This document shows, piece by piece, positions 6,982-8,070 of a stretch of DNA of 32,000 nucleotides. Position numbers and translations under genes: made by a program. Source of the DNA: Candidatus Saccharimonadota bacterium. GTDB lineage: Bacteria > Patescibacteriota > Patescibacteriia > 2-12-FULL-60-25. The stretch lies in NCBI GenBank assembly GCA_016699205.1, contig CP064964.1, positions 1 to 32,000 on the forward strand. Direction: 5' to 3'. The first letter of the stretch is position 1; every line of letters begins with the position of its first letter. A model generated the notes under the pieces. It was not told the DNA's origin, made no database searches, and saw only the letters and a list, made by a program, of their open reading frames with translations.

Positions 6982-8070
6982 ATGCAGACACAGGCTCATC
7001 CCTCCAACGGTCACTCCTCTCCTATGTCCGATTCCCCGTCCCTCAACCCCCAGATGCTGATGCTGAAGCACCTCGCGGCGCTCGATCAGCGAACCCGCCA
7101 CGAGCTTCTCCAGAAGCGCACCTCGTCCAACTTCACGCTGGGCATGGCGGTCATCAGCGGCACGCTGAACCTCGACTCCGGAGTCGGCGCCTACGCCGGC
7201 GACGCCGAGGCGTACGACATGTTCGAGCCGTTCTTCGGCCCGCTCATCGCCGAGTATCACGGGTTCTCGGGGAACCACGTGACGGATTTCGACGTGACCA
7301 AGATCCCGACCGATCCGGTCGATCCGACGGGGGAGGCCATCGTCTCGACGCGCATCCGCGTGGGCCGCAACCTCAAGAACTACCCGCTCGCGCCGATGAT
7401 CTCCAAGGAGCAGCGCCTCGAGATCATGGAGCGCGCCGCGGCGACGTTCAAGGAGAAGTTCACGGGCGACCTCGCCGGCGACTTCTACCCGCTCGAGGGC
7501 ATGGACGAGAACGTCCGTCAGCAGCTCGTGAACGATCACTTCCTGTTCAAGCAGGGTGACCGCTTCCTCGAGGTCGTCGGTGCGAACCACGACTGGCCGT
7601 CCGGTCGCGGCATCTTCCACAACGCCGACAAGACGGCGCTCGTGTGGACCAACGAGGAGGACCAGTTCCGCATCATCTCGATGCAGAAGGGCGGAGACAT
7701 CCGCCAGGTCTTCGATCGTCTCGCCCGCATGGTGGCGATCCTGAACGATGCCCTGCCCTTTGCGTACCACGAGAAGTACGGCGCGATCACCTCGTGTCCG
7801 ACCAACCTCGGCACCGCGATGCGCGCGTCGGTCCACGTGAAGCTCCCGTTCGTGAGCGCACGTCCCGACTTCAAGCAGCTCGCCCAGGACCTCAAGCTCT
7901 CGATCCGTGGCATCCACGGCGAGCACTCCGAGTCCGAGGGCGGTGTCTACGACATCTCCAACAAGCGCCGCTTGGGCGTCTCGGAGGTCGAGGCCGTGCT
8001 CACGATGTACGAGGGTATCAAGCGCCTGCTCGAGATCGAGCGCGAGATGTCGGCCAAGGCGGCTGCCTAG
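6982..8070 (+). CDS. arginine kinase / phosphagen kinase, eukaryote-like two-domain type (ATP:guanidino phosphotransferase)
   Basis: [53 protein letters not shown], active-site [31 protein letters not shown]. The N-terminal helical domain is present. Start is uncertain (ATG 6982 or 7024; the ORF-track TTG at 6901 is rejected). Extreme GC3. Confidence 0.9.
   Translation: [362 protein letters not shown]

Follow-up and report, generated by a model that had tools for sequence, protein, structure and literature searches.

A predicted single-unit arginine kinase of GC-rich composition in the variable uvrC-mraZ gap of an Uhrbacteria-like Patescibacteria genome

The first 32,000 nucleotides of contig CP064964.1 (assembly GCA_016699205.1, deposited as a Candidatus Saccharimonadota bacterium), here called the window, encode a predicted arginine kinase (AK) at positions 6982-8070. 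AK (EC 2.7.3.3) catalyses the reversible reaction of L-arginine and MgATP to phospho-L-arginine and MgADP, in which the gamma-phosphate of MgATP passes to the guanidino group of arginine, and the phosphoarginine pool regenerates ATP on demand. Upstream of the gene stands uvrC (5600-6880) and downstream, on the minus strand and convergent with it, a TrmB-like gene (8141-8878), an arrangement given by an original prediction made from the sequence alone and borne out by open reading frame (ORF) and Pfam data; the ORF is present on the plus strand, and each motif cited in that prediction is found in its translation. The reading favoured here, with a probability of about 0.85, is that of a catalytically competent single-unit AK in a small-genome, Uhrbacteria-like member of the Patescibacteria, encoded on a cassette in the variable gap between uvrC and mraZ, which came from a GC-rich donor, appears to have been exchanged between related lineages and is ameliorating. 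The gene and its domains are as follows.

6982..8070, plus strand: coding sequence (CDS) of the arginine kinase, 362 amino acids, TAG stop; based on Pfam, structure search, AlphaFold2 model and alignment
7090..7248 (amino acids 37-89), plus strand: N-terminal helical domain PF02807 (Pfam), containing the specificity loop D65-S66-G67-V68-G69-A70-Y71
7423..8046 (amino acids 148-355), plus strand: C-terminal catalytic domain PF00217, with E226, R230, C272 (CPTNLGT), R281, R309, E314 and H315

The original prediction had described a full two-domain phosphagen kinase and proposed a Pfam check, which found both domains well over their cut-offs: PF02807 with an E-value of 3e-13 (50.5 bits against a cut-off of 25.7) and PF00217 with an E-value of 2.8e-69 (233 bits, far over the gathering cut-off). 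The AK residues are kept as well. In a sequence search of the PDB, the top match was the two-unit AK of the sea anemone Anthopleura japonica (4rf6, up to 735 bits, about 360-375 per unit), followed by some twenty arthropod and protist AKs (306-333 bits), the dimeric AK 3ju5 (252 bits), creatine kinases (about 230 bits) and, lowest, McsB (75-86 bits). The predicted protein is 45% identical to the Limulus AK over 353 aligned positions, the Limulus reference sequence matching PDB 1rl9 at 356 of 357 positions. It keeps 24 of the 25 Limulus positions checked, namely, in Limulus numbering, D62, S63, G64, V65, G66, Y68, R124, R126, H185, R193, W221, E224, E225, D226, R229, C271, T273, N274, R280, H284, R309, E314, H315 and R330, the sole change being R312 to H, a variant common to the window protein and the Anthopleura enzyme. 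The kept residues are also present in 11 other checked members of the clade of relatives described below, bar position 64, which is Ser in some of them, and the nucleotide-binding arginines (R124, R126, R229, R280, R309, R330) together with the catalytic Glu225 and Glu314 are kept in 12 of 12 clade members and form invariant columns in a 38-sequence alignment. The reactive cysteine, C272 in the window protein and C271 in Limulus, stands in CPTNLGT with T273 and N274 also kept; the specificity loop is of the short, arginine type with no gap relative to Limulus, and the D62-R193 pair is kept (R194 in the window).

The structural evidence is of the same kind. An AlphaFold2 model computed from the 38-sequence alignment has a mean predicted local distance difference test score (pLDDT) of 86 and a predicted template modelling score (pTM) of 0.86, with helices at residues 26-93; its low-confidence parts are residues 1-21 and two loops, both known to be mobile in AK. 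Foldseek matched it to about 30 AK crystal structures with template modelling (TM) scores of 0.80-0.87, root-mean-square deviations of 2-3 Å and a probability of 1.00. The protein is a single kinase unit of 362 amino acids with no contiguous multi-unit architecture. By every sequence and structure criterion applied, the predicted product is an arginine kinase, and this identification is itself not hard, an automatic AK name being already attached to an orthologue in JGI annotation.

A catalytic domain of this family could also belong to an McsB-like protein-arginine kinase, which tags proteins for Clp-dependent degradation, and a clpB-like gene, coding for a Clp-family ATPase (12601-15315), does lie 4.5 kb downstream. 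McsB of Firmicutes (PDB 6fh1, 6tv6, 8gqd) has a homologous PF00217 catalytic domain, and the window protein matches the NCBIfam McsB models with E-values of 1e-20 to 1e-42. Those matches, however, reach only 74-145 bits against equivalog cut-offs of 381-679 and align to query residues of about 114-358, that is, to the catalytic part, whereas the window protein has PF02807 at its N-terminus as well as the free-arginine loop S63-G64-V65/Y68. McsB is without the N-terminal guanidino-substrate domain, has a C-terminal domain of its own, and works with McsA and ClpC. In the PDB ranking the AKs (306-735 bits; 252 for 3ju5) stand far over McsB; neither mcsA nor ctsR adjoins the gene, its neighbours being uvrC and the TrmB-like gene; the ATPase downstream resembles ClpB and is part of the conserved host backbone, outside the AK cassette; and no ctsR/mcsA/clpC operon was found around AK in the window or at the orthologous loci, the context varying among orthologues. 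The original claim that the gene is not of the McsB type therefore holds, and there is hardly any chance that its product is an McsB-like kinase.

In composition the gene stands apart from its surroundings. The AK CDS has a GC content of 0.64 and a GC content at third codon positions (GC3) of 0.91, against 0.40-0.65 in most other plausible genes of the window, as had been predicted, and only about 0.6 in the ribosomal-protein genes of the window. Its GC skew is negative while that of the rest of the window is positive throughout, and the compositional break is sharp and limited to the CDS. Because its composition is foreign, the gene is horizontally acquired.

Orthologous loci place this gene in a real and recurrent genomic setting. 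An orthologue 96% identical to the window protein (P0001) was found on nine contigs, which come from several samples in JGI and Logan; on the six inspected, the AK nucleotide sequences are identical, and one contig (L001) is 1,018,534 bp long with the order uvrA-uvrC-(151-amino-acid ORF)-AK-(241-amino-acid ORF)-mraZ-rsmH-...-clpB. Its backbone is 87-88% identical to the window at the DNA level, and its AK segment 93.7%. In the same uvrC...mraZ gap, AK orthologues are found in L009 (92% amino acid identity), L010 (89%), L007 (88%), L011 (about 73-74%) and L008 (72%), so that seven genome types carry the locus (the window, L001 and L007-L011). In all seven, AK has a GC3 of 0.79-0.91 against a locus background GC of 0.47-0.52, and the gap is hypervariable on either side of the gene, with the 151-amino-acid ORF upstream in L001 and gene sets between AK and mraZ that differ in each genome. 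The contig of L011 (564 kb) bears the title 'Candidatus Uhrbacteria bacterium', and its uvrA, uvrC, mraZ, rsmH and clpB products are 88-97% identical to those of the window; given these flanking proteins and the 1.02 Mb sister contig, the window is assigned by sequence comparison to a reduced, Uhrbacteria-like Patescibacteria genome of about 1 Mb.

A compositional break limited to one CDS is also what might be seen if a fragment of a GC-rich organism had been joined by assembly or binning to a contig of the candidate phyla radiation (CPR). The same junctions on the uvrC and mraZ sides, however, recur in independent JGI, Logan, ENA and NCBI assemblies, including the 1.02 Mb contig; flanks and AK co-diverge over 72-96% amino acid identity; and conservation extends from AK to the promoter region and terminator. 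The probability of such an artefact is practically nil. Contamination or chimerism is excluded, and the contaminating fragment that the original prediction had raised as an alternative is ruled out by synteny in seven genome types from independent samples. Nor is the gene the singleton that had been described, being conserved across a group of related genomes and under purifying selection.

As a side observation on these loci, the contigs of L009 (CAYZVS010000002.1) and L010 (CAZYKJ010000002.1) are titled 'uncultured Gammaproteobacteria bacterium' though syntenic with the window and L011, and their flanking proteins are 74-94% identical to those of the window and of the Uhrbacteria-labelled L011; the label is probably wrong.

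AK, with its control elements, forms a cohesive unit of about 1.3 kb (6845-8140), made up of a promoter-like region, a Shine-Dalgarno (SD)-like motif, the CDS and a terminator. Its parts beyond the CDS, with the N-terminal head, are listed here.

6901..6941, plus strand: conserved promoter-like region, with TTGACA at 6901-6906, TTGAAT at 6914-6919 and TAAACT at 6936-6941
6943..6968, plus strand: possible 5' stem-loop (tentative), upstream of the SD-like motif; minimum free energy -13.3 kcal/mol, z -1.4
6968..6972, plus strand: SD-like AAAGG, 9 nt before ATG 6982, kept in seven loci
6982..7023, plus strand: clade-specific N-terminal head, amino acids 1-14, predicted disordered; alternative start ATG at 7024-7026
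8102..8143, plus strand: intrinsic terminator with a 13-bp stem, 9 G-C pairs, a GAAA loop (8102-8131) and a T-run, shared with the TrmB-like gene

In an alignment of the seven orthologous upstream regions TTGACA (6901-6906) is invariant, and a -10-like box (TAAACT, TATCCT or TACCCT) is kept in all seven loci. At the two loci with a type B AK, TTGACA lies 17-18 nt from TATCCT or TACCCT, the canonical spacing, and in type A an insertion of 11-12 nt provides a second -35-like hexamer, TTGAAT, 16 nt from TAAACT. The promoter-like element of the original prediction thus stands in part: in the window it falls under the 9/12 threshold of a sigma-70 consensus scan, and the putative promoter is supported by conservation of the TTGACA and TAAACT/TAYCCT boxes in seven loci, not by consensus strength. 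The strong terminator that had been predicted is present (hairpin 8102-8131 plus T-run), and a terminator after AK is kept in L001, L009 and L008. The 5' hairpin at 6943-6968 was rejected as a regulatory RNA on its low z score and on covariation in only one of six pairs; Rfam gave no match anywhere in the window.

ATG 6982 is favoured as the start codon because all seven orthologues begin with M(Q/L)TQ, because TTTACTC(A)ATGC around the start is invariant in the seven loci, and because AAAGG lies 9 nt upstream. The second Met (amino acid 14/15; window 7024-7026) is conserved too, and a start there would give a protein of about 349 amino acids, the usual clade length; no SD-like purine-rich motif precedes it. 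The window group is 12-27 amino acids longer than the other 36 clade members (335-350 amino acids), and the window protein is 5 amino acids longer overall than the Limulus AK (357 amino acids), with 3 extra residues before the conserved N-domain. The AlphaFold2 model gives pLDDT below 50 for residues 1-21, and in the orthologues GC3 is 0.54-0.75 over the first 12-13 codons and 0.79-0.93 over the remainder (0.54 for the head and 0.93 for the body in the window). Given this extra length over the clade and the host-like GC3 of the first codons, the extreme N-terminus seems to have been added in the recipient, as a short, disordered segment peculiar to this lineage. Of the Ser/Pro-rich extension that the original prediction had placed ahead of the conserved domain, the disorder and the extra length stand; the segment takes the place of the first helix of the Limulus enzyme and is not an addition ahead of a complete domain.

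The sequence changes within the group bear on how the gene came to lie in these genomes. With dN/dS values of 0.14-0.40 against the orthologues (seven), AK is under purifying selection. The proportion of synonymous differences (pS) is 0.46-0.77 in the flanking housekeeping genes (synonymous divergence, dS, of roughly 0.7-2.4) and 0.15-0.48 in AK; a simulation indicates that codon bias caps pS at 0.45-0.57 in AK versus 0.78 in uvrC, and, corrected for this cap, the synonymous divergence of AK is about 0.4-0.5 times that of uvrC. A low AK dS was accordingly rejected as direct proof of recent transfer, since codon bias caps pS and the corrected deficit is only about 2-fold. Among the polarised synonymous changes of type A, 37 are GC to AT, 3 are AT to GC and 29 exchange G and C, and AK GC3 is lowest in L008 and L009, the two genomes with the lowest background GC, so the GC richness of AK is decaying and not at equilibrium. 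By its flanks L011 is the second-closest genome, yet its type B AK is only about 73-74% identical, while L009, L010 and L007, more distant by their flanks, have type A AKs that are 88-92% identical. This disagreement between the AK tree and the flanks suggests exchange of the cassette between related lineages. With moderate confidence, the cassette would have entered the group after or during its diversification, and the lineages would swap it by recombination via the conserved flanks, with amelioration proceeding in each.

Vertical inheritance from a common ancestor, with the high GC3 held by selection on synonymous sites (for expression level or mRNA stability), would explain that the locus is identical in position in all seven genomes, that AK pS is under that of the flanks in every pair, as synonymous constraint predicts, and that GC3 remains at 0.8-0.9 with the synonymous sites of the flanks close to saturation; the conserved promoter region and strong terminator on the cassette also agree with it. 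On the other hand, the excess of 37 changes over 3 puts GC3 off equilibrium, for which reason selective equilibrium was rejected as the main explanation; GC3 is lowest where the background GC is lowest; the ribosomal-protein genes, as noted, do not share the high GC3; and the flanking genes do not follow the AK tree. Vertical inheritance is further opposed by other GC3-rich orphan ORFs in the window, at 161-1021 (minus strand, GC3 0.80) and 30806-31210 (minus strand, GC3 0.87), which make AK not the sole GC-rich insert and suggest that genes have repeatedly flowed in from GC-rich donors. All in all, vertical inheritance is unlikely, and acquisition from outside followed by exchange is preferred. 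Neither orphan ORF has a match in Pfam, NCBIfam or PADLOC or a counterpart in the fetched loci, and the one at 30806-31210 has its own hairpin at about 30754-30779.

Near the variable region, mraZ and the start of rsmH (window 10251-11250) are 90-95% identical at the DNA level to L011 (mraZ dS 0.20), whereas the surrounding backbone is 73-86% identical to it (dS about 1.5); this segment looks like a recombination patch beside the variable region.

As for the donor, a search of 5.8 billion proteins yielded, after the orthologue group, about 36 single-unit proteins (335-350 amino acids, 56-64% identity), and next multi-unit proteins (about 460-630 amino acids), mostly from a marine eukaryote catalogue, with 41-54% identity. 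In a neighbour-joining tree of 277 search matches and references, cut to 323 single kinase units (100 bootstraps), the window group of 12 sequences has a bootstrap of 100 and nests in a clade of 48 members, all of them single-unit with 335-362 amino acids (bootstrap 74; mean distance within the clade 0.47). The nearest outsiders lie at 0.69-0.80, P0153 and P0117 being the closest and the named ones being the eukaryotic AKs of Percolomonas, Lymnaea and Limulus. Every clade member with a contig inspected lies on gene-dense, prokaryote-like DNA. In L012 the release factor 2 (RF2) gene adjoining AK codes for a protein with 65-72% identity to entries that bear the name Patescibacteria or Candidatus Uhrbacteria, with a 74% match on the same 174-kb scaffold as L014; by this RF2 comparison at least two further AK-bearing lineages (L012, L014) are placed in the Patescibacteria, with AK at other loci. 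In L016, L017 and L019 AK has a GC3 of 0.88-0.95 in a background GC of 0.60-0.66, so that its composition looks native there. With clade members on prokaryote-like contigs, some of them GC-rich with native-looking GC3, the immediate donor was most probably a GC-rich bacterium of this clade and not a eukaryote.

Direct transfer from a eukaryote, such as an associated protist or invertebrate, has in its favour that the best match among solved structures is a cnidarian AK (about 50-52% identity), that the nearest named sequences outside the clade are eukaryotic (Percolomonas at 53%, then Lymnaea, bee and nematode), and that the C-rich, GC3-rich codon usage could suit some eukaryotes. It is nevertheless quite improbable, considering that 36 closer single-unit relatives (56-64% identity) share the clade, that all relatives examined lie on prokaryote-like contigs, two of them identified as Patescibacteria, that GC-rich contigs with native-looking AK composition fall inside the clade, and that no multi-unit sequence and none from the marine eukaryote catalogue (MERC) does. 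Of the 'eukaryote-type' kinase in the original prediction the two-domain architecture remains, while in this tree the nearest relatives are proteins of prokaryote contigs and the eukaryotic AKs stand outside the clade. Two Desulfobacterales-labelled proteins, P0180 (Desulfoluna) and P0218, are 41-46% identical to the window protein and also lie outside the 48-member clade, entering the tree together without bootstrap support.

A phage or plasmid vehicle was considered and rejected. No sequence of the 48-member clade was found in IMG/VR, INPHARED or PLSDB, where most matches take in just part of the sequence (61-69% coverage, 24-32% identity) and those with an annotation are McsB ('protein arginine kinase'); there is one homologue at 35% identity. 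This near-full-length phosphagen-kinase homologue (88% coverage) lies on a 72.7-kb plasmid (PLSDB NZ_CP110821.1, 55239-56192) of Candidatus Bandiella woodruffii, which lives in symbiosis with the ciliate Euplotes; it is annotated only as hypothetical, and gives another symbiont with an AK-like gene. At L014/L015, a diversity-generating-retroelement-like pair (bAvd and reverse transcriptase) with an integrase lies at about 1650-3070, about 5 kb upstream of AK.

Downstream of the cassette lies a module that varies among the genomes, with the following features in the window.

8141..8878, minus strand: TrmB-like winged-helix regulator (PF01978, 4.3e-12), convergent with AK
9025..9444, plus strand: ORF139, divergent from the TrmB-like gene and in the same variable module; 50% amino acid identity to a 136-amino-acid ORF in L008
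9452..9493, plus strand: the AK terminator hairpin repeated, closing ORF139; 2 mismatches in 30, 0 chance matches expected

The TrmB-like gene and ORF139 are found only in the window and L008 among the seven loci (70% and 50% amino acid identity, respectively), with divergent promoter-like sites between them in the window (8860-8893); ORF139 has no match in Pfam, NCBIfam or PADLOC. Because it is present at just two of the seven orthologous loci, the TrmB-like gene appears to be part of the variable module and not a fixed partner of AK, and a role as dedicated AK regulator was discarded as unlikely. The terminator hairpin of about 30-40 nt, GAGCCCTTCCTGCGAAAGCGGGGAGGGCTC, occurs in the window at 8102-8131 and 9452-9481, where it closes AK and ORF139, and in L008 at 2246-2275 and 4281-4312, where it closes AK and a NUDIX gene. 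The repeated hairpin is a possible boundary mark of exchanged modules; the idea that it is a widespread repeat or a site of cassette recombination was rejected, the window and L008 having just two copies each. Also dropped was the idea of an integration site at a tRNA-like sequence near 9600-9690, since neither ARAGORN nor Rfam finds a tRNA there. Further on, 9780-10241 (plus strand) encodes a protein of 153 amino acids, predicted to be membrane-anchored, in which the Cys-rich repeat CxxxGGxxxNGxCxCxxxYxLENGxC occurs twice; it matches the EB module (PF01683) weakly, below threshold (E 0.0015), and none of the other loci compared has it. On the other side of AK, uvrA (3054-5603) has an in-frame TAG at 4146-4148 where L001, L007, L009, L010 and L011 have GAG (Glu), a single-base nonsense mutation or read error; in the sister contig L002 uvrA is likewise called as two pieces.

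By analogy with known phosphagen systems, the kinase would make a phosphoarginine pool and so buffer ATP where the energy supply fluctuates, in a cell that ferments and depends on a host. Tentatively, and with the balance somewhat against it, phosphoarginine buffering may even be a circulating accessory trait of Uhrbacteria-like Patescibacteria, in which a cassette of GC-rich bacterial origin is kept under selection by many lineages and swapped among them, and lets ultra-small cells draw on stored ATP when they are host-free or short of energy. The extreme version, in which the cell would cash in arginine or phosphoarginine harvested from its host, is pure speculation.

Several points weigh against the favoured reading as a whole. 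The ATP-buffer role rests on analogy only. The lower AK dS and the excess of GC to AT changes could partly reflect weak codon-usage selection and not recent exchange. The tree was made by neighbour-joining from simple distances with no McsB or creatine kinase outgroup, and its deep nodes are unsupported. An attempt to name the GC-rich carriers L016, L017 and L019 was abandoned, the PurA adjoining AK in L016 being just 50% identical to a Myxococcales entry and the other contigs sharing no informative genes with the loci compared. The sub-threshold score of the promoter-like element in the window belongs here as well.

The finding bears on how CPR/Patescibacteria cells with genomes of about 1 Mb manage energy without a respiratory chain, as a conserved AK under selection would give them a phosphagen buffer. 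If so, no phosphagen system would have been described in the candidate phyla radiation before it, and bacterial AKs would be carried well beyond their proteobacterial distribution, widening their known host range; a full-text search of the accessible literature found no paper in which arginine kinase is connected with Patescibacteria or with the candidate phyla radiation. The locus would also offer a clean natural example of a foreign gene in the midst of amelioration that is exchanged at a fixed chromosomal hot spot.

Among known systems, the AK of Anthopleura japonica (PDB 4rf6-4rf9) is closest to the window protein by sequence and fold; both proteins carry the RGIHGEH variant, with His at Limulus position 312, and window residues 8-30 can be aligned with the N-terminal tail of the Anthopleura enzyme. 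That enzyme, however, is a eukaryotic protein of two fused kinase units and about 715 amino acids, whereas that of the window is a bacterial protein of one unit, and all 48 clade members are single-unit, which sets them apart from the multi-unit type. The Limulus polyphemus AK (PDB 1m15/1bg0/1rl9) agrees with the window protein in the substrate and catalytic residues bar R312 to H, in loop length and in both flexible loops, and differs in its first N-terminal helix, in place of which the window protein has a disordered Ser/Pro/Thr-rich segment (amino acids 1-21).

Bacterial AKs have been described as largely restricted to a few Proteobacteria, a 'skewed, proteobacterial' distribution (PMC11492440). 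The characterised ones summarised there are from Desulfotalea psychrophila (Andrews 2008), Myxococcus xanthus (Bragg 2012) and Sulfurovum/Oceanithermus (Suzuki 2013), with clusters A, B and B' distinguished by Suzuki 2013 and Fraga 2019; there the Desulfotalea AK is given as an active enzyme and, citing Bragg 2012, M. xanthus as needing AK for fruiting bodies and viable spores (PMC11492440). The window protein does not group with P0180 and P0218, which are labelled Desulfobacterales, the taxon of cluster B' (Desulfotalea/Desulfobacterium type), and no Sulfurovum/Oceanithermus (cluster A) or Myxococcus (cluster B) sequence is named among the matches examined. As bacterial AKs are already known, what is new lies in the host phylum, in an AK family within the Patescibacteria and in the dynamics of the cassette. 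The characterised enzymes come from Proteobacteria or Deinococcota, whereas the host of the window belongs to the Patescibacteria/CPR; like the window protein, they are single-unit AKs of about 340-360 amino acids with both domains and all catalytic residues, and their genes, too, are sporadic and are read as horizontally acquired.

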